The notes below the pieces were generated by a model that did not search any database, was not told the origin of the DNA, and worked only from the letters and a program-made list of their open reading frames with translations. Positions 1,402-12,964 of a stretch of 64,000 nucleotides of DNA are shown in pieces. The stretch's first letter is position 1, and each line of letters opens with the position of its first letter. The DNA is from a virus: the IMG/VR virus record IMGVR_UViG_3300042542_004852. The stretch is one strand, 5' to 3'. The position numbers and the translations under genes were made by a program.

Positions 1402-1809
1402 ATGAACAAGAGTTTAGAAAAGTGCGTGGAAATAACTAAAGGACTAAAGCCTCACAAACAGAATGGCCGCAGTTTTCATGCCACTTTTATTTTTGACAAG
1501 AAGAGACTGCTCAGCATTGGCTATAACGACTATAAAAAGCATCATCCCTATCACAAGCTGGGCAAGTACATTGGCTACAAAACCAACCCTGAAAAATACC
1601 AGCCCTGCTTGCATTCTGAGATTAGTGCCTTGTTGAAACTGGGTGAAGAAGATTTGAGTCGTTGTGTTTTTGTTAATGTGAGAATAGACCAGAGAGGCGA
1701 ACTAGCCCTAGCAAAGCCTTGCCAAAATTGCGAAAGAGTTTTGCGGCAGGTTGGTTTTAAAAAGCTTTTTTATTCTTCTGAAAAAGGGTTTGTGGAAATG
1801 ATGGGTTGA
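1402..1809 (+). CDS. Zn-dependent cytidine/dCMP deaminase-family protein
   Basis: HSE...PCQNC zinc-binding deaminase motif, with SIGYN upstream. Confidence 0.8.
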   Translation: MNKSLEKCVEITKGLKPHKQNGRSFHATFIFDKKRLLSIGYNDYKKHHPYHKLGKYIGYKTNPEKYQPCLHSEISALLKLGEEDLSRCVFVNVRIDQRGELALAKPCQNCERVLRQVGFKKLFYSSEKGFVEMMG

Positions 1810-2207
1810 TTTTTTTTCTTGTTTTAATAGCACTGGGTTTTTTTAGAGGGGGGTGTTTTTTTATTAATTAGGGGGGGTAGTGAGTGCAAGATGGTGAGGA
1901 GCATGGGGGGAGATGAATGGTTGTTTTTAAGAGTGGAGATTGAGAAAACCCACCCCTGGCGCGTTTAGGAGATTTCCTTAGGTCAAATTCTTAGGAAATG
2001 GGGGTGGGTGCTTTTCTTAGTCAACACTAGGGCAGTTACCTACGCCGCCCTAATGGGGGGCAAGCTGTCAAACGAAAAAAGAAAAAACAAATAGTGGCAC
2101 TTGGCACACTAATTACCATAAAAGAAAAACACTAAAAATAAATGCACGTTGCGCTTGCAGGTCTGCGGATTTGTGGCAATATATAAACAGTTAACCAAAC
2201 GAACAAC

Positions 2208-2411
2208 ATGCAAAACGAAATCAACCTGAACGCCCTCGAAACCAAAACTCTCACCGCTCTTCAGTGGGTTATCATCCGCAACGCCTTGCAAGATAAAATG
2301 GAGGAATTCGACAGCGCTGCCAGTTGGGCAGAATCCAAGGGCTACAACAGCGAAACCTACTACCGCAACGAATACGCGAAACGCTCTCAAATCTTGAAAG
2401 CTATCGCATAA
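2208..2411 (+). CDS. Small hypothetical early protein
   Basis: ORF with C-ending codon bias, downstream of a promoter-like element. Confidence 0.65.
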   Translation: MQNEINLNALETKTLTALQWVIIRNALQDKMEEFDSAASWAESKGYNSETYYRNEYAKRSQILKAIA

Positions 2412-2451
2412 AATCGCTTGCGCGTTTAACCTTTCTCTCTACATTCTAATT

Positions 2452-2700
2452 ATGGAAACAAAACAAATGCACAAGGTCTTAGTTCTGGAACAGCACAGCG
2501 ATGCTGAAAGATTCTCCATCGCGGGATGGGAACGCAGCGCTTCGGTGCGCCGTTCATGGAATGAAATGGTTGAAAAATTCCCCGAATGCGTGCGCGAAGT
2601 GTCTGTGAACGCTTGCCCTTGCTACGGTTCCTCTCACTGGAAACAAGGCAAAGACGGACGAATTGAAATCGTCTCTTTGAACTGTGATTCAAGCGATTAA
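2452..2700 (+). CDS. Small hypothetical early protein
   Basis: ATG 6 nt after the TTGCGC-N16-TACATT promoter at 2418. Confidence 0.65.
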   Translation: METKQMHKVLVLEQHSDAERFSIAGWERSASVRRSWNEMVEKFPECVREVSVNACPCYGSSHWKQGKDGRIEIVSLNCDSSD

Positions 2701-2741
2701 TCGCTTGCGCGTCCCTCTTTCCCCTCTACTATCCTCTTGCC

Positions 2742-2954
2742 ATGAACAACGTCTCCCTTGCCACCCTTCCAGAACTTGACCTCCGCTCCATTGAACTTGA
2801 CGGCGTGGACTTTCGCGACTATCCCGACTTCTGTGATGCTTTTATCAGCTATGCGGAAGCAAAGGACGGGACACCTCTGACAAGCGAGCAACTGGAAATC
2901 TTGAATGAAGATTCCGACTTGATTCACACGCTTGCGCATGATTCCTGCCACTAA
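2742..2954 (+). CDS. Small acidic phage protein (DYPDFCDAFI family)
   Basis: Contains 'RDYPDFCDAFISYAE', a motif I recall from small phage proteins. Has its own promoter at 2705. Confidence 0.7.
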   Translation: MNNVSLATLPELDLRSIELDGVDFRDYPDFCDAFISYAEAKDGTPLTSEQLEILNEDSDLIHTLAHDSCH

Positions 2955-3017
2955 TCGCGCAAAATCGCTTGCGTTCCCCTCTTTCCCCCCTATACTCTCA
3001 GCACCCCGCCCCCCACT

Positions 3018-3239
3018 ATGAAAAGCATTCAATTCAAAACCTTCACGCTCTACATTCAATTTTCAGGCTTTAGCCAATCAAAGAAACACATTCACCTTCC
3101 CTTCTATGTCAAGGCATGGCGCAAGCATCCAGCCTATGACAAGCATCTTCAAATTGCCATCTCTAACGCTGCGGTCAGCACTGGCCTTTCTCCCTCTACT
3201 AAGCCTGTCTGTTACTCGCTACTTGCGGGAATGTGCTAA
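3018..3239 (+). CDS. Small hypothetical early protein
   Basis: Follows the promoter TTGCGT-N16-TATACT at 2969. Confidence 0.6.
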   Translation: MKSIQFKTFTLYIQFSGFSQSKKHIHLPFYVKAWRKHPAYDKHLQIAISNAAVSTGLSPSTKPVCYSLLAGMC

Positions 3240-3283
3240 AAAGCACTTGCGCCCCTCTTTCCCCTTTCTACTCTACTCCTGCC

Positions 3284-3466
3284 ATGAACGCCCCCCTCTC
3301 CAAACGTGAAAGATTCGCCCTCCGAACATCCAAGGCCAGCGGCTTGCCAAACGGCTTTGGCCCGCGCCTAGTTAACCCTGCGCCCTACGTCTGCCAGTGT
3401 GCAAGTTGCAAGGTTGAACGTGAACTCGGCCTTTCCCTTCGCACTCCAAAGCAGTGCGAAGCATAA
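3284..3466 (+). CDS. Small basic Cys-containing protein
   Basis: Start MNAPLSK follows the promoter at 3247. Contains CQCASC. Confidence 0.55.
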   Translation: MNAPLSKRERFALRTSKASGLPNGFGPRLVNPAPYVCQCASCKVERELGLSLRTPKQCEA

Positions 3467-3497
3467 GCAAACAACCTAAGCAACAACACTACCCACT

Positions 3498-3662
3498 ATG
3501 CAATTCTCACCTACTGCCGAAGACATGCATGCGCTCGCTAGCGAGCACGACGCACGCTGTGATTCACCTAATCCCGAATGGGATGATTTCCTACGGGAGC
3601 AGGAGGATAAGTTCTTAGACGCCTTCTATGAGAGGGCAGTGGAAAAGTCCTACGAACTTTGA
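3498..3662 (+). CDS. Acidic 54-aa protein, MxFSxTAEDMHA family copy 1
   Basis: Manual translation: MQFSPTAEDMHALASEHDARCDSPNPEWDDFLREQEDKFLDAFYERAVEKSYEL. Confidence 0.75.
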   Translation: MQFSPTAEDMHALASEHDARCDSPNPEWDDFLREQEDKFLDAFYERAVEKSYEL

Positions 3663-3705
3663 CTAAGCCTAGGCTAGGAAACTCTTAAGCCCCTTAAGTG
3701 GGGAG

Positions 3706-3756
3706 CCTAAGAACTTTACCTAGGCCAGGGGCCTTGGGGTAGGTAAAATTCCTAAG
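3706..3756. repeat. 51-bp palindromic inter-cassette element, copy 1
   Basis: CCTAAG-AAC-TTTACCTA-N17-TAGGTAAA-ATT-CCTAAG. Confidence 0.95.
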
Positions 3757-3933
3757 ACTCTAAGCCTAGTTCACCTAAGACAATCCCTTGCCTTTCCCTA
3801 AGACGATTCTCTTGTCAAGAGAAACAAAAGAAATCTTTTCTGCAATCTTGGCATGATAATTTCCATAAATGAAAAAGATGAAAACAAAACAAAAAAGAAT
3901 TTGCGGTTCTCTTGCCATGTGGCATAATAAGTC

Positions 3934-4212
3934 ATGGAAACGAAAACACTGCTTACAAACGAACAAGTCCTCGCCCTTCTCAACAACGTCGCCCCCCGCG
4001 CCGTGACCATCACGAAAGATGAAACTCCGCTGGAAAACATTCTCGCTTCTCTCACTTCTTTCAACTACGAGAAAGAGGACGGCGTGACTCGCGTGGAAGG
4101 CGCAACTTTCCAGCACGTTGCAATCTCAAAGAACACTGGCAAGCAGTATGCCACGTTTAAAACGTCCGATGGAAAGTTCAAGTCTTTCTTCACTGCTCAA
4201 ATTCAATTCTAA
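3934..4212 (+). CDS. Hypothetical early protein
   Basis: Leaderless start after TTGCGG-N16-CATAAT at 3901. Confidence 0.75.
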   Translation: METKTLLTNEQVLALLNNVAPRAVTITKDETPLENILASLTSFNYEKEDGVTRVEGATFQHVAISKNTGKQYATFKTSDGKFKSFFTAQIQF

Positions 4213-4249
4213 TTTGCCAAGCCAGAAAAACCCTTCACCTTCTAACCCT

Positions 4250-4492
4250 ATGAAAAACAAAATCCCCATGCAAGAAAACATCACAATCTCCCGCGAAACT
4301 TTTTCCACTCTGCTTTCTTTCGCTAAGCGCGAGCAGACAATCTGCGACAACAACGCCAGAAACGCCCTTAAGAAAGTCGAGGAACTCCCGAACGACATTT
4401 TCTGGCAGGACTCGGTAAACTTCTGGAGGCAGGAAAGCCAGAACGCCCAGAACACCTACACAAAAGCCCTAGAAGAAGCGCAGACGCTCTAA
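4250..4492 (+). CDS. Hypothetical helical early protein
   Basis: Start moved to MKNKIP. Ends just before repeat copy 2. Confidence 0.65.
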   Translation: MKNKIPMQENITISRETFSTLLSFAKREQTICDNNARNALKKVEELPNDIFWQDSVNFWRQESQNAQNTYTKALEEAQTL

Positions 4493-4500
4493 TCGGGCCT

Positions 4501-4551
4501 CCTAGGTAATTTACCTAGGGGAAGGCCCCTGGCATAGGTAAAATCCCTAAG
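4501..4551. repeat. 51-bp palindromic element, copy 2
   Basis: CCTAGG-TAA-TTTACCTA-N17-TAGGTAAA-ATC-CCTAAG. Confidence 0.95.
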
Positions 4552-4732
4552 ACTCTTACCCTAGGAGTCTTACCTAAGAAGTCTATTTACTATTAGAGCA
4601 TTTAGTATTTACTATTAGGGCGTTTCGAATTTGCAGTTTGATGAATAAAAAACATGAAAAAAAGATTTGCGCGTTCTTTGTTTTCTGTTATTCTATGCGC
4701 GTAGTCAGTTAACCATTAATATATCCTCTGTT

Positions 4733-4930
4733 ATGCAATTCTCTATCACCGCTGAAGACATGCACGCCGCCCGCCCCGCTTATGACCTTGATGAGGTCAA
4801 CGGTTTTGAGGGCGAAGAACCCTCCGACAATCAAGAGTTTGACACTCATGATGATTATGTTGAGCCGATGGAGGACCAGTGGCTTGATAGCTACTACGAA
4901 AGCCAGACCGAATGCGACTTCGGTGAATGA
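4733..4930 (+). CDS. Very acidic 65-aa protein, MxFSxTAEDMHA family copy 2
   Basis: MQFSITAEDMHAARPAYDLDE..., D/E-rich. Confidence 0.8.
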   Translation: MQFSITAEDMHAARPAYDLDEVNGFEGEEPSDNQEFDTHDDYVEPMEDQWLDSYYESQTECDFGE

Positions 4931-4936
4931 CCTACG

Positions 4937-4961
4937 AGGGCGGCGAAAGCCGCCCTTTTTT
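4937..4961 (+). terminator. Intrinsic terminator (GAAA loop)
   Basis: AGGGCGGC-GAAA-GCCGCCCT followed by a T tract. Confidence 0.9.
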
Positions 4962-4971
4962 ATATACATTG

Positions 4972-5022
4972 CCTAGGAGGTTTACCTAGGCCGCGCCCCC
5001 TGGGATAGGTAAAATCCCTAAG
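4972..5022. repeat. 51-bp palindromic element, copy 3
   Basis: CCTAGG-AGG-TTTACCTA-N17-TAGGTAAA-ATC-CCTAAG. Confidence 0.95.
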
Positions 5023-5161
5023 ATTTTCGCCTTAGGTAAGAAGTCTATTTACTATTAGGCGCTTTAGTATTTACTATTAGGAGATTTCGAGTTTGCTATT
5101 TAGGGAATAAAAAATCATTTTTTTCTTGCGCGGACGAGGTAAACCGCTATTCTATAGCCCT

Positions 5162-5293
5162 ATGAACGAAATGAACTTCTCCACTACCGCCGAAGATATG
5201 CACGCCGCCGCCGCTGAGTTCAACGAGTTTTACGACTTGTTGCGCGAGGAGGCATGGGAGCATCAAGAAGCTTCTCTCACGCAAAACAACTAA
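5162..5293 (+). CDS. Acidic 43-aa protein, MxFSxTAEDMHA family copy 3
   Basis: Manual translation: MNEMNFSTTAEDMHAAAAEFNEFYDLLREEAWEHQEASLTQNN. Promoter at 5126. Confidence 0.75.
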   Translation: MNEMNFSTTAEDMHAAAAEFNEFYDLLREEAWEHQEASLTQNN

Positions 5294-5304
5294 ACTTAAA
5301 TCTT

Positions 5305-5502
5305 ATGATGACACCCGACGAATATGATCCCCCCTCTTATGGGGGCACTCCCACGCAGGAAGCCCATGCAGAAATGACTCTTTTGTTTGGCGCGGAAAAA
5401 CCAACTCGCGCTTGGATTCTTACGGACTTTGATGTGTGGGCACCGAATCCTTTTTACTGTGGGCCTCCACAGCCTCATCCAGAAGACGATGACCATTGGT
5501 GA
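5305..5502 (+). CDS. Small Pro/acidic phage protein
   Basis: Contains 'AWILTDFDVWAPNPFYCGPPQPHPED'. Start MMTPDE. Confidence 0.7.
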   Translation: MMTPDEYDPPSYGGTPTQEAHAEMTLLFGAEKPTRAWILTDFDVWAPNPFYCGPPQPHPEDDDHW

Positions 5503-5510
5503 GCATAAGC

Positions 5511-5561
5511 CCTAGGAGAAATACCTAGGGCACGCCCCTTGGCGTAGGTAAAATCCCTAAG
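5511..5561. repeat. 51-bp palindromic element, copy 4
   Basis: CCTAGG-AGA-AATACCTA-N17-TAGGTAAA-ATC-CCTAAG. Confidence 0.95.
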
Positions 5562-5665
5562 AGAAAACAAAAAAACTTTCCTGCAATCTTGGCATGCTAA
5601 TTACTAGAATAAAAACAAGTTAAAAAAGGCATTGCGCGAATCTCTTTTTCTGTTATCTTGTGGCC

Positions 5666-5794
5666 ATGAAGAAAATCACATTTCGCAAGCCAAAAATCCT
5701 CTCCTTCCGCCTCTCCACTCGCAAAGTCGGCGGCATTCGTTTCGTGCGCGTGGGAAAACTTGTCTTTTCTTTCTGCGTGTCAAAAAAGGCTTGA
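5666..5794 (+). CDS. 42-aa basic peptide
   Basis: MKKITFRKPK...VSKKA, leaderless after the promoter at 5632. Confidence 0.6.
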   Translation: MKKITFRKPKILSFRLSTRKVGGIRFVRVGKLVFSFCVSKKA

Positions 5795-6013
5795 CTTCTC
5801 TCCTTTCTCGCTTATCTTATCCCCATGAACGAAGAAATCTTCACCACAATCTTTATCTCACTTACGCAACGCTTTGACCTTGCCTGCAAAGAAGTTGCCG
5901 AGTCGAAAAATGAAAAACTCAAAGACTACTGGCGGGAAGAAGCGGACAAAGCTCTTCAAGCTCGTCGATATATTGTAGAAAAGATTTGACTTCTCTCCTT
6001 TCTCGCTTATCTT
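5791..6013 (+). promoter_or_regulatory. Two identical 28-bp promoters (5791-5818 and 5986-6013)
   Basis: TTGACTTCTCTCCTTTCTCGCTTATCTT occurs twice. Each -35 box overlaps the TGA stop of the preceding ORF. Confidence 0.85.
5825..5989 (+). CDS. 54-aa hypothetical protein
   Basis: MNEEIFTTIFISLTQRFDLACKEV..., leaderless. Confidence 0.65.
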   Translation: MNEEIFTTIFISLTQRFDLACKEVAESKNEKLKDYWREEADKALQARRYIVEKI

Positions 6014-6036
6014 TAACCCGTAACCAAAACAACACT

Positions 6037-6321
6037 ATGAAAGACCTCATCACCAAAGAAAACCTCGTCGCCCTTCTTCGTTCTAAGAAAGAAGCAGTCA
6101 TTGAAGCCCTGAACGGCAAAAATGTCGTTTACCTGAACGAAGGAGAAAGCAAAGTCAAATCCAACGGCGTGCGAAACTTCAAGATTCTGGACATCGAACA
6201 CGTTGGAACTGGCAAAGCTGGCCGAACATTCATCACGGCCAAAGTCGAGGACTTGAACGACAACAGCGAAATCAAGTATCGGAATCTTCACATCGCGGGC
6301 CTTGAACTGGCTTGGGAATAG
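6037..6321 (+). CDS. Hypothetical early protein
   Basis: Start MKDLIT, strong C-ending codon bias. Confidence 0.75.
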   Translation: MKDLITKENLVALLRSKKEAVIEALNGKNVVYLNEGESKVKSNGVRNFKILDIEHVGTGKAGRTFITAKVEDLNDNSEIKYRNLHIAGLELAWE

Positions 6322-6327
6322 TCTTTT

Positions 6328-6391
6328 GAAGAGAGACGGCAATTGGAAAATGCCCCTAATAGGCTAGTAGGTTCAAACCCTACCCTCTTCT
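6328..6391 (+). ncRNA. tRNA-like RNA with collapsed anticodon arm
   Basis: Acceptor GAAGAG/CTCTTC, D arm GGCA-ATTGGAAAA-TGCC, mini hairpin CCT-AAT-AGG, T arm GTAGG-TTCAAAC-CCTAC. Confidence 0.65.
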
Positions 6392-6399
6392 ATCAATTT

Positions 6400-6498
6400 G
6401 AGCGCGAGGCATGGTTGCCTAAGCTGGCAGGATTGTCACCCTACAGTGTAAACTCCAAATGACAATGGAAGCAGGTTCGACTCCTGCCGCGCTCATCA
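6400..6498 (+). ncRNA. tRNA-like RNA with aberrant, expanded anticodon region
   Basis: Acceptor GAGCGCG/CGCGCTC, arm AGGCA-TGGT-TGCCT, stem ATTGTCA/TGACAAT with a 21-nt loop, T arm GCAGG-TTCGACT-CCTGC. Confidence 0.7.
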
Positions 6499-6518
6499 CT
6501 TTTTAATCAATAAAAAAT

Positions 6519-6776
6519 ATGCTACGCCTAGAATCCTCCACTACTTCTGTAAATGCCGCTTGGCATTATCTCTTAGAAAACAAATGCAGCTTTAGCTCTC
6601 CTGTGCAAATGCTTTCTTCTCGCGCCTTGCAAAAGGCAAAGCTCAAACCCCTCGCGCCGATTGAAACTAAAGTAAAAATCCTCTCTAGGGCTAACGCTAA
6701 AAAGAAAGCAAAAACTTTCTTGCTTAAAGCAGAGGAAAAAATTTCAAACCTCGTAAAAAAAATCTCTAGGCGGTGA
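6519..6776 (+). CDS. Basic (Lys-rich) hypothetical protein
   Basis: ORF followed by a hairpin at 6785-6823 and repeat copy 5. Confidence 0.55.
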   Translation: MLRLESSTTSVNAAWHYLLENKCSFSSPVQMLSSRALQKAKLKPLAPIETKVKILSRANAKKKAKTFLLKAEEKISNLVKKISRR

Positions 6777-6830
6777 TAAGACAAAGGGGGTGGAGAGGTT
6801 AGTGTTGTTCCTCTCTGCCCCCTAAGTTTT

Positions 6831-6881
6831 CTTAGGTGATTTACCTAGGCCAAGCGGCCTGGGGTAGGTAAAACTCCTACG
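6831..6881. repeat. 51-bp palindromic element, copy 5
   Basis: CTTAGG-TGA-TTTACCTA-N17-TAGGTAAA-ACT-CCTACG. Confidence 0.95.
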
Positions 6882-6993
6882 CTCAAATGGCAAATTCCCT
6901 ACCGTTTCTTAAGAAAGATGCCTAAGAAGTCTATTTAAGACTTTCCTATTTAGTATTAGGGCGTTTCGAATTTGGATTTTTATCTTTTTCTAT

Positions 6994-7021
6994 TTGACAG
7001 AAGCGCTTTTGCCTCTATAGT
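6994..7021 (+). promoter_or_regulatory. Sigma70-like promoter with 16-bp spacer
   Basis: TTGACA-N16-TATAGT with ATG 6 nt downstream. Representative of about 18 plus-strand copies in 2.1-11.4 kb. Confidence 0.85.
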
Positions 7022-7027
7022 AGAAAC

Positions 7028-7243
7028 ATGAACCACACATTAGAAACCGCAGGCAACCTACTTCGTCAAATCAGTGAAGAAAGCAGAGGCGTGGCCTTGA
7101 CAAAGGAACAAGCGCACATTTTCAACGCAGTGTTCTACAGAGGCATGCTGGAAGACCTCATTGTCGGCAACGAAACAATTGCCAAACATTTTGAAGAACG
7201 CCTTGACCTTGTGCGAAAATACAATAAGCTCTCGCTTGCATGA
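7028..7243 (+). CDS. Hypothetical early protein
   Basis: Leaderless after the 6994 promoter. Confidence 0.7.
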   Translation: MNHTLETAGNLLRQISEESRGVALTKEQAHIFNAVFYRGMLEDLIVGNETIAKHFEERLDLVRKYNKLSLA

Positions 7244-7574
7244 AGAAGACCCATCACCTCGGCACAATCTCAGACCGCGAACTTAAAAAGCGCGTGCGCA
7301 AAGACCTTCCGCCGCCGCCGCAGAAACATAAAAGCGCCAAAGACTACCGCCGCAATCCCAAACACAAAAACAATGGATAGTTTCAGAGCAGAACAAAAGA
7401 AAGAATGCCTTGATAGCAGCAAAAACAAACGCGCCAAATATGGTTGCCGTTGCTGCTGCAAAATTCGAGACGTTAGCGAGCGCAAAAAATACTCTCGCGC
7501 CCTTGCGCGTGCGAGACTCAAAAATAAAGACAAAAAAGATTTGCCAGAAGAATAAAAACCAGTATCTTATCGCC

Positions 7575-7952
7575 ATGACACAATCACAATTCCACAACAA
7601 AGTTTTGACTCATTACTGGCAAGCTCGCAACAAAAAACGCTTTCATGCAATCTCTCAAACGATTGCGGAAATCGAAAGCAGAAAAAATGAAGCAGAACAA
7701 ACGATGCAAAAACTTTTGCCTAAAATGACAAAAGGAAAAGCTAAACCAATCGAATCAGTAGAATTTTATGATGCGCGTGGCGCTTCTGCTGCTCTTGTTG
7801 GCCTGCTCTCCACATTGCGAAAAGTTCGCGAAGAAATCTTTTACAGCATTGATGAAATCGCTCGCTTCACAGAACCAGAGTGGAACGGGCGCGAGCCTTT
7901 GCGCAAACCAGTGAACAGCGAAAAAATGTTTGAAATTCTAAGTGACCTATAA
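7575..7952 (+). CDS. Hypothetical coiled-coil early protein
   Basis: Start MTQSQF, 6 nt after TTGCCA-N16-TATCTT. Confidence 0.7.
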   Translation: MTQSQFHNKVLTHYWQARNKKRFHAISQTIAEIESRKNEAEQTMQKLLPKMTKGKAKPIESVEFYDARGASAALVGLLSTLRKVREEIFYSIDEIARFTEPEWNGREPLRKPVNSEKMFEILSDL

Positions 7953-8039
7953 ACTTTCTTGACTTTCTCTCGCCTAGGGGAAAAGAGGCTCCATGCCTCG
8001 ATCAACGGAGAAATCCCGCGACTTACCCTAGGTGGGGGG

Positions 8040-8090
8040 CTTAATACGTTTACCTATGCGATGCCCCCTGGGGTAGGTAAAATCCCTATG
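8040..8090. repeat. 51-bp palindromic element, copy 6 (degenerate left end)
   Basis: CTTAAT-ACG-TTTACCTA-N17-TAGGTAAA-ATC-CCTATG. Confidence 0.9.
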
Positions 8091-8230
8091 TTCTCTTAGG
8101 GAACACTCCTAGGGGATAACCTTGTCAAGCACTTTCTAAAAGCGTGCCAAGTTTACAAAAATAAAAAAGAATAAAAAACGCACAAAATGATTTGCGCTCT
8201 TTCTTTGCGTGTGCTAAGTTTACCTTGCCT

Positions 8231-8470
8231 ATGAAAAAACAAACACAAGCCATTGATGTGCTGGTCAACCTAGTTGACTGGATGATGACAAACAGCCGCG
8301 AAAACCTCGCGCCTGCTTTTGAAGCCCTGAAACTGGATGCTGACACAATCTTCTCTGCTTTCGACTTTGCTTATGGCGAAGAAGAGGAAGAAGATTCAAG
8401 CGAGCATCTTGTTCCTCGCTCGCAAGTTCGTCAAGAATTGCGTGCAATGGGAGTTGACATTGAAGACTAA
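8231..8470 (+). CDS. Acidic hypothetical early protein
   Basis: Start MKKQTQ, contains an EEEEED tract. Confidence 0.7.
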   Translation: MKKQTQAIDVLVNLVDWMMTNSRENLAPAFEALKLDADTIFSAFDFAYGEEEEEDSSEHLVPRSQVRQELRAMGVDIED

Positions 8471-8489
8471 TCCGCTAGCTTGCATTCCT

Positions 8490-9125
8490 ATGATGACACC
8501 AACACTTGCTAAAGAATTGACTGGCGGGCTTTCCAAGCCTTCTAAAATGCCAGGCTTTGCCTACTCCATCCCCGCGCAAGCGTGCGGGGTTGGTTCACGC
8601 CTTCGCACTGTGCAAGGCTCCATTTGCTCTAAGTGCTACGCTCTAAAGGGGCGTTACGTTTTCAGCAACGTGAAAAATGCCTTGTATCGTCGCCTTGCTT
8701 CCCTTGTGAATCAAGAGTGGGTTGAAGCGATGGCGTTTCAAATCAATCATGCCTCTGTGAATGTTTTCCGCTGGCATGATGCGGGCGATTTGCAATCTCT
8801 CGAACACTTGGAAAAAATCGCGGCAGTTTGCGAGGCTACGCCCGACGTGCGCCACTGGCTACCGACTAGGGAGTATGCTATCGTGACAGAATACAAGGAA
8901 AAGCATGGCGCTTTCCCCGCCAATCTTAACATTAGGCTTTCTGCCTACATGATGGATGGCCCCTTGCCTACTGGCGCTGCTGAACGCCTAGGCGTCACAG
9001 TGTCGGGCGTTACTAGCGACCCTAGTAAAGTTACCTGCCCCGCCTACAAACAAGGCGGCGTGTGCGGCAGTTGCCGCGCCTGCTGGAATAAGAATCAAGA
9101 CGTAGTAATGTATCCTAAACACTAA
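8490..9125 (+). CDS. Phage Gp88-like Cys-rich protein
   Basis: SKMPG...C...CSKCYA...FRWHDAGD...HWLPTRE...CPA...CGSCRACW pattern of the GP88 family. Confidence 0.75.
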   Translation: MMTPTLAKELTGGLSKPSKMPGFAYSIPAQACGVGSRLRTVQGSICSKCYALKGRYVFSNVKNALYRRLASLVNQEWVEAMAFQINHASVNVFRWHDAGDLQSLEHLEKIAAVCEATPDVRHWLPTREYAIVTEYKEKHGAFPANLNIRLSAYMMDGPLPTGAAERLGVTVSGVTSDPSKVTCPAYKQGGVCGSCRACWNKNQDVVMYPKH

Positions 9126-9192
9126 TGGAAATTCTAATTGTTTTTCTTATAGCGATGCTTGCCACGCTGGTCAGATCAAGGTAACTCCTACG

Positions 9193-9219
9193 AGGGGGCG
9201 GGAAACCGCCCTCTTTTTT
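9193..9219 (+). terminator. Intrinsic terminator (GGCGG-GAAA-CCGCC)
   Basis: Hairpin plus T tract, about 10 nt before repeat copy 7. Confidence 0.9.
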
Positions 9220-9229
9220 AGGCTCCATC

Positions 9230-9280
9230 CCTAGGGAATTTACCTAGGCCAGGCCGCCTGGGATAGGTAAAACTCCTATG
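9230..9280. repeat. 51-bp palindromic element, copy 7
   Basis: CCTAGG-GAA-TTTACCTA-N17-TAGGTAAA-ACT-CCTATG. Confidence 0.95.
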
Positions 9281-9457
9281 CCCACATAAGAACATACCCT
9301 AAGCATTCAATTACCGTGCCAACATCGCAAAAACTTTTGTGCAAAAAACTTTGGCCATAATGCAGAAACACGTTGTCTTTTGTTTTTGATGTGTTATCTT
9401 TATGCACGTTCAAAACAGAACGCTTCAACGAACCAAAACCAAAACACGAAAAATACT

Positions 9458-10228
9458 ATGTCACTCCTCATCGCCAAAAACAAAATCTCCTTCGAGCAAC
9501 TCGCCACTGTCGCCACTCCTGAGAAAACCGAATCTTTCCAGCCAATCGGCCACGCCTATCTGGTTGACCAGATGCGCGAGGCAATCGCCCGCGCTGGCTA
9601 CAACGTGAAAGAGGAGGAACACGCGCTCGCCCGCATGGGTCAGCGTTACTTCGGCGGCTTCGTCATTACTGGTAAAAATCTCGACGCAACTGATCGCCAG
9701 CTTGTTCTCGGCTTGCGCAACGCGCACGATAAGAGCTTCGCGGCTTCTGTGTGCATTGGCAACCGAATGATCGTTTGCGAAAACCTTTGTTTCGCCAGTG
9801 ACATTAAACTCGCCCGCAAGCATACCACGAACATCATGCGCGACATTCCCCGCGTTCTCGGCGAGGCTGTGGGTCGCCTTGTCTCTCACTTCACCGACAT
9901 GCAAAACCGCATTGAAAACTACAAGACCTTCGAGCTTGTCGAGGATGAGGCCGCTGGCTTGATCGTTAAACTTGCAGATGCCAAGGCGATTCCTGCCCGC
10001 GAGGTTTACCCCATCATGCAGCAATTCCGCACGCCTAACCATCCTGAGTTCAACGGCCATACGCTGTGGAGTCTCTACAATGGCGTGACAGAATGCCTTA
10101 AGGGCGGCGACTTGAGCAAGCTGCCCGCCCGCACCATGACCATGCAGAGTGTTTTCGATGCTCGCGTAGGTCATCGCCCCATCATCGAAGCGGAGATTGA
10201 CACCGCTGAGCTTGTGATGGAAGCGTAA
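9458..10228 (+). CDS. DUF932-family protein
   Basis: TESFQPIGH...LGLRNAHDKSF...RMIVCENLCF...KHT...TLWSLYNGVTE, a DUF932-like pattern. Confidence 0.75.
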   Translation: MSLLIAKNKISFEQLATVATPEKTESFQPIGHAYLVDQMREAIARAGYNVKEEEHALARMGQRYFGGFVITGKNLDATDRQLVLGLRNAHDKSFAASVCIGNRMIVCENLCFASDIKLARKHTTNIMRDIPRVLGEAVGRLVSHFTDMQNRIENYKTFELVEDEAAGLIVKLADAKAIPAREVYPIMQQFRTPNHPEFNGHTLWSLYNGVTECLKGGDLSKLPARTMTMQSVFDARVGHRPIIEAEIDTAELVMEA

Positions 10229-10241
10229 GCAAAACCTCTAC

Positions 10242-10265
10242 GGGGGGCGGGAAACCGCCCCCTTT
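10242..10265 (+). terminator. Intrinsic terminator (GGCGG-GAAA-CCGCC)
   Basis: Hairpin followed by a short T tract. Confidence 0.85.
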
Positions 10266-10278
10266 CTTATGCCCTACG

Positions 10279-10329
10279 CCTAGGAGTTTTACCTATGCCA
10301 GGCCGCCTGGGCTAGGTAAACTACCTAAG
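10279..10329. repeat. 51-bp palindromic element, copy 8
   Basis: CCTAGG-AGT-TTTACCTA-N17-TAGGTAAA-CTA-CCTAAG. Confidence 0.95.
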
Positions 10330-10525
10330 CAATAAAAAAGAATAAAAAAGATTTGCGGGCTTCTCTTTTTCTGCTATTCTATAGGCCATGAACCAATACG
10401 ACACACCCGCAGAAATAATCCTCATCACAGCAGCTTGGCTAGTGGGCATCATAGCCCTGTTGTCTGTATCAATCATTCTCTGGTATTGATTGACAAAAGA
10501 TAAAAAACACATTAAATTCACCACC

Positions 10526-10816
10526 ATGAACACACTGAAAGAAATCCTTCTGAACGGCGGCTACGTTACTGACGCGGCACACTCTGAACTGAAAAGCATT
10601 TTTCCAAACTTGAACGTCTGCGTCAAGTGGGGCGCTGCCCCTCGCCAATTGACCACGCTTGGCAGTCTGGAATCTGTGCTGGATGCTGGTAAACTTCGCG
10701 GCGACTATGTGCGGGAAGTTTTCGTTCCTGTCAGCGCATTCGACAAGTTGCGCGAGGCTTTCGGCATCACTGACGAAGATCAGCAGGAATACTACAAAAA
10801 CTTTTTGTCAGCTTAA
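10526..10816 (+). CDS. Hypothetical early protein
   Basis: Start MNTLKE after the TTGACA promoter at 10490. Confidence 0.7.
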   Translation: MNTLKEILLNGGYVTDAAHSELKSIFPNLNVCVKWGAAPRQLTTLGSLESVLDAGKLRGDYVREVFVPVSAFDKLREAFGITDEDQQEYYKNFLSA

Positions 10817-10828
10817 CATTGAACCACC

Positions 10829-11188
10829 ATGAAACGAGTAAAAATCTATCGCAATCTTCACAAGCAATGCCTCTCTGTGCTTCACCGCACTGAAAAAGGC
10901 TGGCGGCTTTGGAAACACGTTCCGCGCATTGAAGTTTTTAATGTAGTTTTTAAAGTGTCGCAAGCTGGGCGCGAGCGAGTGCTGAAAGAAAAGCGCAAAA
11001 ATGTTCATGCTTTCATTGAAGGTGACTACGCTGGCGTGACAAATGTGACAAGCTCTAACCTTCGCTTTATTAGATACAATCCCTATGTGGCTGGGCACTT
11101 CTTTGATCAGGATACGAAAAAAGCCGTAAAAGAATCTTCTTGGGCTTTTGTAAACGAAAAAGGCATCATGGCCATAAATGTTCTCTAG
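10829..11188 (+). CDS. Conserved phage hypothetical protein
   Basis: YRNLHK...FKVSQAGRERVLKEKRKNVHAF...YNPY, a pattern I recall from large phages. Confidence 0.75.
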   Translation: MKRVKIYRNLHKQCLSVLHRTEKGWRLWKHVPRIEVFNVVFKVSQAGRERVLKEKRKNVHAFIEGDYAGVTNVTSSNLRFIRYNPYVAGHFFDQDTKKAVKESSWAFVNEKGIMAINVL

Positions 11189-11190
11189 GC

Positions 11191-11219
11191 AAAGGGGGGC
11201 GGGAAACCGCCCCTTTTTT
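11191..11219 (+). terminator. Intrinsic terminator (GGCGG-GAAA-CCGCC)
   Basis: Hairpin plus T6. Confidence 0.9.
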
Positions 11220-11229
11220 ATGCCAATGT

Positions 11230-11280
11230 CCTAGGGAATTTACCTAGGCGAAGCCGCTTGGGATAGGTAAAACATGTAAG
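11230..11280. repeat. 51-bp palindromic element, copy 9
   Basis: CCTAGG-GAA-TTTACCTA-N17-TAGGTAAA-ACA-TGTAAG. Confidence 0.93.
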
Positions 11281-11337
11281 CAATAAAAACAGATAAAAAA
11301 AGAGTTGCGAGGTTCTCTTTTTCTGCTATCTTCTCAC

Positions 11338-11688
11338 ATGGACACGAAAAACATCACCGAACAAATCGAAACCTTCCGCGTTGCCTTGGAAAACATGCTG
11401 CTGGAATATCGCAACGCACGCTTCCCCACGCTGCCAGCGCCCACTGTGGAAATCTCCACTGGCAAACGCTTTGCGCGAATCATTAAAAAAGATGGCGGTC
11501 ATTGGGGCTGTCGGAGCACTGCCAGGACTCATTCCAGAGTTTTCGCTTATGGTTTCATTGATCTAAGCAATGGCGACTTGCTCAAAGCGGCATCATGGAA
11601 AGCGCCAGCCATGCATGCTCGCGGAAACATTTTCAATCAGGACATTCTTTCTGGTTGCGGCCCTTATGGAATGGCGTATCTTAAATAA
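11338..11688 (+). CDS. Conserved phage hypothetical protein
   Basis: GFID..GDLLKAASWKAPAMHARGNIF...YL motif, which I recall from large phages. Confidence 0.75.
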   Translation: MDTKNITEQIETFRVALENMLLEYRNARFPTLPAPTVEISTGKRFARIIKKDGGHWGCRSTARTHSRVFAYGFIDLSNGDLLKAASWKAPAMHARGNIFNQDILSGCGPYGMAYLK

Positions 11689-11693
11689 AAAAG

Positions 11694-11717
11694 AAGCGCG
11701 GGAAACCGCGCTTTTTT
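11694..11717 (+). terminator. Intrinsic terminator (GCGCGG-GAAA-CCGCGC)
   Basis: Hairpin plus T6. Confidence 0.9.
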
Positions 11718-11727
11718 ATGCCCTCTA

Positions 11728-11778
11728 CCTAGGGAATTTACCTATGGCAAGCGGCCTGGGCTAGGTAAAACCCCTACC
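11728..11778. repeat. 51-bp palindromic element, copy 10 (last)
   Basis: CCTAGG-GAA-TTTACCTA-N17-TAGGTAAA-ACC-CCTACC. Confidence 0.95.
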
Positions 11779-11814
11779 CTCACTAAGAAATTCCAGTATG
11801 TTTCCTAGGAGTCT

Positions 11815-11935
11815 TTATTACGCATTTTCTCGTTCACTTATTAGGAGTTTTCTCGTTCACTTATTACGCATTCTCTTATTTGCTATTAAGGCGTTTCGAA
11901 TTCATTATTAGGACGAATCGCATTCACTTATTAGG
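11815..11935. repeat. Degenerate 22-23 bp tandem repeat (YTATTA-anchored)
   Basis: Anchors at 11815, 11838, 11861, 11883, 11905 and 11928. The first two units are near identical. Confidence 0.8.
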
Positions 11936-12055: not shown

Positions 12056-12964
12056 TTAACCAATTGTTTCCAAGAGACGCAAGCCTTGACTTGTGATCTG
12101 TCTTGTGCCTTCGATGCGCAGGAGATTCATCTTAAGCAAGTGAAGCTCTGCATCTTTGCGGAGAGCTTGAACGCTAAGGCCAGTGATGGCGCTGAGCATT
12201 GTGAGAGTCAAGGGGCCGCGCTCTTTGAGAGCAGAGAGAATCTGAATCTCTGTATTGGTAAGACCGCGCTTGTTGATGTTGGCTTTGTGGCATAGGCTAG
12301 TCCAATCTTCGGCGGAAAAGTCAGGGCTGTTCTTTCCTTCACAATGCCTTTCAATATCATCAGCACGCTTGACTGCGCTGCGAGCATTGCCGCGAATTGT
12401 CGTGGCGATGTCGTCAAGAACACCAGCGGCGAATTTCACAGCGGGAATGCGCTTCTTGATGATGTCCTTCACTTCGCTGTTGCTATAGGGGGTAAAATCA
12501 ATAACAGTAAGGCGATCTTTGAACGGCGCAAACAAACGATCCATTTCTGTTGTTGCGAACACGAAGTTGATCTTAGAGAAGTCGAAAACGTATTCGACAT
12601 CTTGGTGAGTGTAATGCACCACTGTTTTCTTTTCAGTGTTTAAGATGGAGAGAAAAGCGACGACAAGTTTCTTGGGCAGTTCATGAGCTTCATCCAAGAA
12701 TATCATGCACTCTGTATCTTGAATCTGCGGCATCATCTGCTCGAAGAATTGTTTTTCGTTCTTGATGCTGCTGCTATTGATTTCGTAGAAGCGTTTCTTT
12801 GATGCGGCACCGAGAGCGCGGGCGAATTCAGTTTTGCCAATGCCACGCTGACCGTTGAGCATGATGAATGGAAGAATTCCCGTGTTCTTATAAGCATCAA
12901 GATAAAAGCTGAGTTGACGCTTGATGTGTTCCTGTCCAATGATGTTTTTGAATGCTTGGTTCAT
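12056..12964 (-). CDS. ruvB: RuvB-like AAA+ Holliday junction helicase
   Basis: FKNIIGQEHIK, GQRGIGKT, FLDEAHEL, FATT, FKDR, C-terminal winged helix ending GTRQIT. Confidence 0.8.
   Translation of the reverse strand: MNQAFKNIIGQEHIKRQLSFYLDAYKNTGILPFIMLNGQRGIGKTEFARALGAASKKRFYEINSSSIKNEKQFFEQMMPQIQDTECMIFLDEAHELPKKLVVAFLSILNTEKKTVVHYTHQDVEYVFDFSKINFVFATTEMDRLFAPFKDRLTVIDFTPYSNSEVKDIIKKRIPAVKFAAGVLDDIATTIRGNARSAVKRADDIERHCEGKNSPDFSAEDWTSLCHKANINKRGLTNTEIQILSALKERGPLTLTMLSAITGLSVQALRKDAELHLLKMNLLRIEGTRQITSQGLRLLETIG

Follow-up and report, generated by a model that had tools for sequence, protein, structure and literature searches.

The stretch of DNA analyzed here, referred to as the window, comprises 64,000 nucleotides of the IMG/VR record IMGVR_UViG_3300042542_004852, which represents an uncultured freshwater phage of about 140 kb. 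The window contains a block of small rightward genes punctuated by ten copies of a 51-bp palindromic element, which is the subject of this report. The phage is a large siphovirus unrelated to T4; the window includes lambda-like tail genes L, I/K, and J, together with genes for rIIA, rIIB, thymidylate synthase, tRNAs, glycosyltransferases, sulfotransferases, and a sigma-like factor. It has no close relative among cultured phages, and a megablast comparison of the region with 50,697 phage records returned no match. A previous interpretation, referred to as the sequence-only reading, proposed that the elements are recombination sites between exchangeable gene cassettes, comparable to those of an integron or a shufflon, and named an operator array as the alternative. 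The evidence presented below favors the alternative.

A probable early gene block with ten copies of a 51-bp element

The GC content of the block is 44–50%, compared to 30–42% in most of the remaining window, and the genes on both sides of it are oriented leftward. The assignment of coding strands is confirmed by the patterns of substitutions at third codon positions. The base composition, the orientation of the flanking genes, the promoters, and the small size of the genes suggest that the region is an early block serving host takeover. Its genes are mostly uncharacterized and include homologs of gp82 of mycobacteriophage L5, of the Pfam GP88 family, and of DUF932. Three paralogous acidic mini-proteins, each encoded in a separate unit of the block, share the N-terminus M(Q/N)FSxTAEDMHA; their family, f0, is the largest family of open reading frames in the arrays of related phages.

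The units begin with an element, which is followed by one or more promoters, one to four small genes, and often a terminator, and this layout is the one that the sequence-only reading had described. Terminators consisting of a GC-rich hairpin and a run of thymines are located 10–14 nt before copies 3, 7, 8, 9, and 10 of the element (5 of 10), also in agreement with that reading. The promoters predicted from the sequence belong to a single sigma70-like class, TTGCG(C/G)-N16-TAT(C/T)(T/C)T. Their −10 hexamers are often 5–8 nt from the ATG, which implies leaderless messenger RNAs. Upstream of some of the early promoters (3860–3890, 5585–5615, and 2095–2125), an A-rich tract is followed by the block CTTGGCA-N3-TAATT(A/T), which may be a second promoter of the extended −10 type or a site for another protein.

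The arm pattern of the element, TTTACCTA-N17-TAGGTAAA, has nine exact matches in the window, and ten matches are found when up to three mismatches are allowed, with the arms starting at positions 3715, 4510, 4981, 5520, 6840, 8049, 9239, 10288, 11239, and 11737. Dinucleotide-preserving shuffles yielded 0.00 exact and 0.38 relaxed matches. The ten copies are all on the plus strand, in direct orientation, and fall within the interval of 3.7–11.8 kb; outside it the 64 kb contain none, so that the number, the positions, and the confinement of the copies are those reported previously. With the outer boxes included, the 51-bp element reads C(C/T)TAGG-N3-(T/A)(T/A)TACCTA-N17-TAGGTAAA-N3-CCTA(N)G. Each element is built of two 15-bp dyads, TAGG-N7-CCTA, in which the half-sites are 11 bp, or one helical turn, apart. 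The centers of the two dyads are separated by 32 bp, or three turns, and the dyads are therefore positioned on the same face of the helix. The interval between the two is occupied by a GC-rich dyad, CCAGG-N3-CCTGG. As previously claimed, the core has 17 bp in every copy and its right side is always C(C/T)TGG (10 of 10 copies in the window); the left half-site CCAGG has been lost in four. Additional CCTARG boxes and solitary TAGG-N7-CCTA dyads are found beside some of the copies. An Rfam search at E ≤ 1 identified no family at the elements, and a literature search for the two arm sequences returned chance matches only and no description of the motif.

The hexamer CCTAGG occurs 21 times between 2 and 12.1 kb and not once in the remaining 52 kb of the window. 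Its absence outside the array was rejected as evidence in its own right, because it is not significant once the rarity of CTAG is modeled (Markov expectation of 0.4). At least 14 six-base palindromes (of 64 in total), including CCTAGG, have no copy in the 52 kb from 12101 to 64000, where 6–17 copies of each are expected from the base composition; the avoided palindromes include AGATCT, ATCGAT, CATATG, GATATC, CAGCTG, CCATGG, and CGATCG. The avoidance is strong and similar to that of restriction sites, and the retention of 21 copies of CCTAGG in the array against this background counts in favor of a binding site.

Conservation of the element and tests for base pairing

The array occupies orthologous positions in related phages from metagenomes, which represent at least eight lineages. 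Pattern scans located it in the IMG/VR and metagenome contigs G002, G003, G004, L014, L019/L020/L043/L137, L101, L066, L070, L040, L039, and L153. The flanks of the copies are recognizably orthologous between genomes, and the order of the copies is conserved. Copy 6 is present in L040, where its core differs from that in the window at 7 of 17 positions, and the surrounding flanks are about 93% identical overall.

Fifty-seven unique copies from about 12 contigs were aligned in the orientation of transcription. Sixteen columns of the alignment are invariant (T3A4, T12–A17, G32, T35–G37, T39A40, and T48A49), which includes TACCTA (columns 12–17) and five of the six bases of TAGGTA, the sixth of which, G38, is conserved in 98% of the copies. 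The genes flanking the elements are only 70–85% identical in the same comparisons. The proportion of sites that differ between orthologous copies is 0.011 for the arms, 0.033 for the flanks, and 0.102 for the core, and the arms are therefore under the strongest constraint. The half of the element proximal to the promoter is the better conserved one (A41/A42 in 90–93% of the copies, compared to 66–69% for T10/T11). The designation of the core as hypervariable was considered and rejected: with no neutral (synonymous) rate as a yardstick, its divergence of 0.10 per site is read as relaxed constraint rather than as a hotspot. The spacer in TACCTA-N17-TAGGTA is preserved in 85 of 86 copies, and its length does not change even in copies whose inner dyad is displaced by a base or has a center of 4 nt. 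Such locking of the length indicates a constraint on the geometry of B-DNA, the phasing of which fits the element better than a loop does.

The sequence-only reading had proposed that each element could fold into a long hairpin with a 2×2 mismatch. Some of the copies conform to this proposal; copies 2, 3, 4, and 6 lack the inner CCAGG/CCTGG stem, and the predicted folds of single-stranded DNA are modest (−5 to −11 kcal/mol, z of −1.2 to −3.4). The 57 copies show no covariation between the arms. Standard pairs account for 83.2% of the cells of the proposed hairpin, compared to 84.3 ± 0.4% when the 3′ partners are shuffled, with 500 of 500 shuffles scoring at least as high, and there are 6 compensatory cells instead of the expected 12.6. 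Chimeras composed of left and right halves of different copies fold at least as well as the native copies on either strand. Therefore, the dyad symmetry represents two conserved half-sites rather than selection for pairing.

The boxes are arranged differently in more remote phages. Lineage L154 has the same boxes with a spacer that is one base longer, CCTA-N18-TAGG, in 12 of 12 copies. The distant lineages L155–L158 contain no CCTAGG; they have 14–18 copies of CCAGGG-N4-CCCTGG within a block of 11–13 kb in records of 37–79 kb. This 16-bp dyad, with half-site centers 10 bp apart, occurs in either orientation and always before a promoter region, and some of its copies have outer inverted arms TTGACA...TGTCAA. 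The order of features in L155–L158 is the GC dyad, TGTCAAG, a covarying hairpin with a T-run, and a promoter of the same class as in the window. These lineages share with the window only the DUF932 protein (about 62% amino acid identity), a RuvB-like gene, and a small neighboring gene. The retention of the GC dyad in distant relatives indicates that it is the old shared core, to which the CCTA/TAGG boxes were added as a lineage-specific elaboration.

In L156 and L157 (for example, L157:5790–5830), the hairpin between the GC dyad and the promoter has the form TTACG-NNN-loop-NNN-CGTAA, contains compensatory changes, and is followed by a T-run. It is probably a covarying terminator, unlike the dyad, which does not covary.

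Table 1 Positions of the elements and of other features in the window
Feature	Position	Strand	Remarks
Rightward block holding the array	1402–11800	+
Element copy 1	3706–3756	+	CCTAAG-N3-TTTACCTA-N17-TAGGTAAA-N3-CCTAAG
Element copy 2	4501–4551	+	GGGG/CCCC in place of the inner stem; core different in each close relative
Element copy 3	4972–5022	+	Preceded by terminator 4936–4963
Element copy 4	5511–5561	+	Left arm AATACCTA, two mismatches
Element copy 5	6831–6881	+
Element copy 6	8040–8090	+	Left half-site CCAGG missing
Element copy 7	9230–9280	+	Core GGCCAGGCCGCCTGGGA; preceded by terminator 9194–9219
Element copy 8	10279–10329	+	Preceded by terminator 10242–10263; promoter −35 is 32 nt past the right arm
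Element copy 9	11230–11280	+	Preceded by terminator 11194–11219; promoter −35 is 33 nt past the right arm
Element copy 10 (last)	11728–11778	+	Preceded by terminator 11694–11718; followed by iteron-like repeats and strand switch
Representative early promoter (predicted)	10353–10380	+	TTGCGG-N16-TATTCT, 7 nt before ATG, leaderless type
Promoters of the same class (predicted)	3901–3928, 5126–5153, 5632–5659, 6994–7021, 11305–11332
Acidic mini-proteins	3498–3662, 4733–4930, 5162–5293
DUF932 protein	9389–10228		Common to all lineages
Second repeat family, (C/T)TATTA(G/C)G	11800–11935		Period of about 22–23 bp; after the last element
Shorter repeats of the second family	4576–4625, 5046–5090		TATTTACTATTAG, two times; after copies 2 and 3
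RuvB-like AAA+ ATPase, full-length	12059–12964	−	NCBIfam RuvB E 6e-25, far below the equivalog cut-off; PDB RuvB E 7e-15
AT-hook-like protein, 93 amino acids	13011–13289	−	Invariant K-R-G-R-P-x-G near the N-terminus
Sigma-like factor, 195 amino acids	42902–43486	−	Sigma70 region 2, E 2e-9

Cassette differences and comparison with known systems

A map of the families of open reading frames in the arrays, together with DNA comparisons, shows that the order of cassettes is mostly conserved between relatives. The unit with families f1–f3 precedes the f2/f11 unit in the lineage of the window and follows it in L020 and L043. Units 2, 3, 8, and 9 are missing from L101, L066 has one extra unit, and G002 lacks copy 3 of the element plus one gene. 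Furthermore, the open reading frame f50 (window 11340–11681) has been replaced in G002, with the promoter before it and the terminator after it conserved. Indels of 110–450 bp are located inside units at 4258, 5790, 6391–6501, and 7232, and most indels between close relatives fall within cassettes. Of 62 homology breakpoints, 10%, 21%, and 29% are within 30, 60, and 100 bp of an element, compared to 13%, 21%, and 30% of random positions, and breakpoints are thus not enriched at the elements. Absences and movements of whole cassettes between lineages are as in any hyperplastic early region.

The segment of about 110 bp at 6391–6501, which is present in the window and absent from G003, G004, and L040, holds a tRNA-like element (ARAGORN 'tRNA-???'; Rfam tRNA score of 23.5 bits, below the threshold).

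The 114 open reading frames of the window include no match to an integrase, resolvase, transposase, or HUH family, which agrees with the previous statement that no recombinase is visible, and the profiles PF00589, PF00239, and PF01797 have no match in five related records with a total of about 300 kb. Terminal overlaps indicative of a circle were seen among the fetched contigs only in L092 and L118, both of which are unrelated chance matches; none of the fetched contigs bearing the element has one. The sequence-only reading had itself named conserved gene order, breakpoints unrelated to the elements, and a lack of circles as observations that speak against recombination. That reading is weakened by the conserved order, the absence of breakpoint enrichment, and the lack of recombinases and circles, as well as by the absence of covariation and the stability of the chimeras.

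Imperfect palindromes that mark cassette boundaries in one orientation and contain internal mismatches recall the attC sites of integrons. The attC sites conserve structure rather than sequence or length and require IntI, and integron cassettes are promoterless and driven from Pc. By contrast, in the phage array the sequence and the length are conserved, structural covariation is absent, the cassettes have their own promoters, and neither the window nor the five related records contain a PF00589 protein that could correspond to IntI beside the array. Shufflons and invertases are not matched either, since the copies are all direct and no PF00589 or PF00239 match was found in the five related records. 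The confinement of the copies to one block at orthologous positions and the lack of a PF01797 match (RAYT, HUH Y1) distinguish them from repetitive extragenic palindromic (REP/BIME) sequences. The integron or shufflon reading is not supported.

The promoter-early stem-loop (PeSL) cassettes of T4-type phages (Arbiol 2010, PMC2839356; Comeau 2014, PMC4122927) resemble the array in their repeated regulatory modules, which are distributed through a hyperplastic early region of small, mostly uncharacterized genes. Each of the units combines a strong host-type promoter with a terminator, and relatives differ by indels of cassettes. The composite of promoter and terminator is also predicted here, with terminators before 5 of 10 elements and sigma70-like promoters after them. 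However, a PeSL consists of a promoter and a terminator hairpin, whereas the siphovirus, unrelated to T4, has an extra, invariant, and length-locked four-box dyad between the terminator and the promoter, at which breakpoints are not enriched.

Stoperators of Cluster A mycobacteriophages, recognized by repressors of the L5 gp71 type (PMC9283540, PMC6550527), are many copies of one protein site placed in short intergenic gaps in one orientation relative to transcription, and by this logic a single factor silences many units, partly by blocking elongation. The array likewise has many oriented intergenic copies, the sequences of which are conserved without a pairing constraint and which would bind one protein. 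Unlike the 51-bp dyad, which is restricted to about 8 kb, stoperators are 13-bp asymmetric sites that are bound by monomers and distributed throughout the genomes of temperate phages. In addition, no gp71-like or other helix-turn-helix repressor was found in the window or in the relatives. Cluster O mycobacteriophages have more than 30 mostly intergenic copies of a 17-bp dyad, TGTTCGG-N3-CCGAACA (PMC4351075), and its invariant inverted arms around a variable 3-bp center have the form of the inner CCAGG-N3-CCTGG dyad. However, the Cluster O sites are scattered over the whole genome, lack outer boxes, and have unrelated sequences. The early region of the Streptomyces phage phiC31 contains many 17-bp inverted repeats near promoters and terminators, the conserved inverted repeat (CIR) operators, which are bound by one repressor. 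phiC31 is a temperate phage with a known repressor gene, and its operators are single dyads rather than four-box composites. The element belongs to none of the PeSL, stoperator, and Cluster O groups and departs from attC sites in the properties that define them. The array is a real, clade-wide element of regulatory appearance, akin to the regulatory sites that are repeated in the early regions of phages.

A putative operator and the alternative explanations

The element is tentatively interpreted as a double-stranded multi-box operator or boundary site for a dimeric or tetrameric protein, probably encoded by the phage, that would coordinate, shut off, or insulate the early operons. This is a serious possibility and the reading favored here; the binding of a protein, its identity, and the sign of the regulation are what we infer. 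A sequence-specific dimeric and probably tetramer-forming protein would bind at the head of every early unit, just past the terminator of the previous unit and 32–175 bp before a promoter of the host-sigma type. The binding would make at least ten early operons one regulon, in the simplest version through shut-off, or through roadblock and insulation, at the switch from early to middle expression. Because the spacer length and the outer arms differ by phage lineage, the binder is more likely to be encoded by the phage than by the host. The sigma-like factor of the phage is consistent with a switch away from early promoters that depend on the host sigma factor.

Several observations weigh against the operator. 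The distances from the element to the promoter fall into classes of 32–33, 76–81, 90–137, and 175 nt, no helical phasing was found beyond the 32–33-nt class, and the internal promoters at 5791 and 5986 have no element. Therefore, simple promoter-proximal repression cannot be the whole story, and roadblock, looping, or insulation is suggested rather than occlusion of the −35 hexamer. Searches of the window and of the relatives for HTH_3, repressor, and other regulator families were negative. Approximately half of the copies have no terminator upstream and may thus be transcribed. The center of the inner dyad varies across lineages between N3, N4, and N5, and such changes in length are easier for a hairpin loop than for a protein dimer. 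In the stem, A·C mismatches on the top strand outnumber G·T mismatches by about 3 to 1. This excess would fit folding of the bottom strand, where the mismatches would be G·T wobbles, but it may be explained by the A+C-rich top strand. Finally, there is one compensatory change from A·C to A–T, at copy 9, between the window and G004.

It is unlikely that the element functions in RNA. The palindrome would then be transcribed, either at the 3′ terminus of the preceding unit or by read-through, and would form a hairpin for processing or stabilization similar to the RNase III sites between the early genes of T7. A function in RNA would accommodate the 5 of 10 copies in the window that have no canonical terminator upstream (17 of 58 copies pass a strict terminator test) and the loop-like variation of the center length between lineages. 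It would also suit the distant GC palindrome, which is upstream of a covarying hairpin and T-run resembling a real terminator and would thus lie within the transcript there. However, the other five copies in the window sit past a strong terminator, the sequence after the element is A-rich rather than a U tract, and the prevalent A·C mismatches of the top strand, unlike G·U, do not form pairs in RNA. The length-locked spacer, the invariant sequence of the arms, the absence of covariation, and the lack of an Rfam match also disagree with an RNA element. All of the evidence for recognition of the duplex applies equally to a host factor, such as a nucleoid protein, gyrase, or a global regulator, for which the element would insulate strongly transcribed tandem units from one another, topologically or transcriptionally. 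The preservation of CCAGG...CCTGG across phage lineages that have almost no early genes in common, together with the absence of a phage regulator family from the window and the relatives, is in keeping with this explanation. It is nevertheless improbable, since the outer arms and the spacer are lineage-specific, with TACCTA/TAGGTA separated by N17 or N18 in some phages and TTGACA/TGTCAA or no outer arms in others.

The cassette differences listed above (the movement of f1–f3, the losses from L101, the gain in L066, and the replacement of f50 in G002) could also be products of a PeSL-like substrate, a module of terminator, element, and promoter that mainly supplies homology for the shuffling of early open reading frames by general recombination. 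This is quite unlikely, because the breakpoints show no enrichment near elements, indels between close relatives are mostly inside cassettes, contigs bearing the element lack circle-type terminal overlaps, and homology alone leaves the invariant arms, the fixed spacer, and the variable core unexplained. As a by-product of another function, the repeats may provide homology for the occasional loss or movement of a cassette. A single-stranded hairpin or a cruciform could take part in a DNA transaction, which might be attC-like recombination, nicking, priming, or processing by the adjoining RuvB-like motor. The imperfection of the palindrome with its internal mismatches, a mismatch spectrum equivalent to G·T wobbles on the bottom strand, and the RuvB-like gene beside the array in all lineages point in this direction, as do the compensatory change at copy 9 and the inner 13-mer of copy 2, which appears inverted in G002 relative to G003 and G004. 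Such a function is very unlikely, however, given that there is no overall covariation, that 4 of 10 copies in the window lack the inner stem, that gene order is conserved, and that no integrase, resolvase, or HUH family was found. GC-rich centers disfavor the extrusion of cruciforms, and the differences between the cores of individual copies would block strand exchange by tyrosine recombinases. It is highly improbable that the elements are dedicated sites for transactions on the folded bottom strand (recombination, inversion, or nicking) that drive the exchange of early anti-host cassettes by means of an unrecognized enzyme, perhaps helped by the RuvB-like motor. If this were true, a lytic phage would possess an integron-like system that works without any known integrase.

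With respect to the operator, a candidate for the binder is encoded close to the array. The 93-residue AT-hook-like protein is preserved across all lineages, the distant ones with the GC dyad among them, and its K-R-G-R-P-x-G motif is that of an AT-hook. It has no match in Pfam or among PDB profiles, and look-ups of this protein and of f1 in the ESM Atlas gave nothing informative. It may bind the DNA of the array or that of the adjoining iteron-like repeats. The RuvB-like ATPase and the DUF932 protein, which all lineages likewise share, are further candidates for the binder of the array. These repeats form a second family, which is expanded at the strand switch beside the RuvB-like gene and looks like the iterons of a replication origin; related CTTATTT repeats are found at the same place in distant relatives. 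The RuvB-like gene directly follows the array and is kept there in every related lineage, with 49–86% identity. RuvB homologs are unusual in phages, and no RuvA was seen.

The results caution against reading every palindrome that flanks gene cassettes as an analog of attC. The array marks the early block and therefore helps to define early genes in metagenomic phage contigs, and the element is a handle for fishing out its regulator by DNA pull-down. Natural variants of the site, with N17 or N18 spacers and with four boxes or a bare GC dyad, can serve the study of the co-evolution of the site and its binding factor. Should the operator reading prove true, a whole clade of large uncultured freshwater siphoviruses would run its host-takeover genes as one regulon, by means of a composite, geometry-locked DNA site that has no described counterpart.

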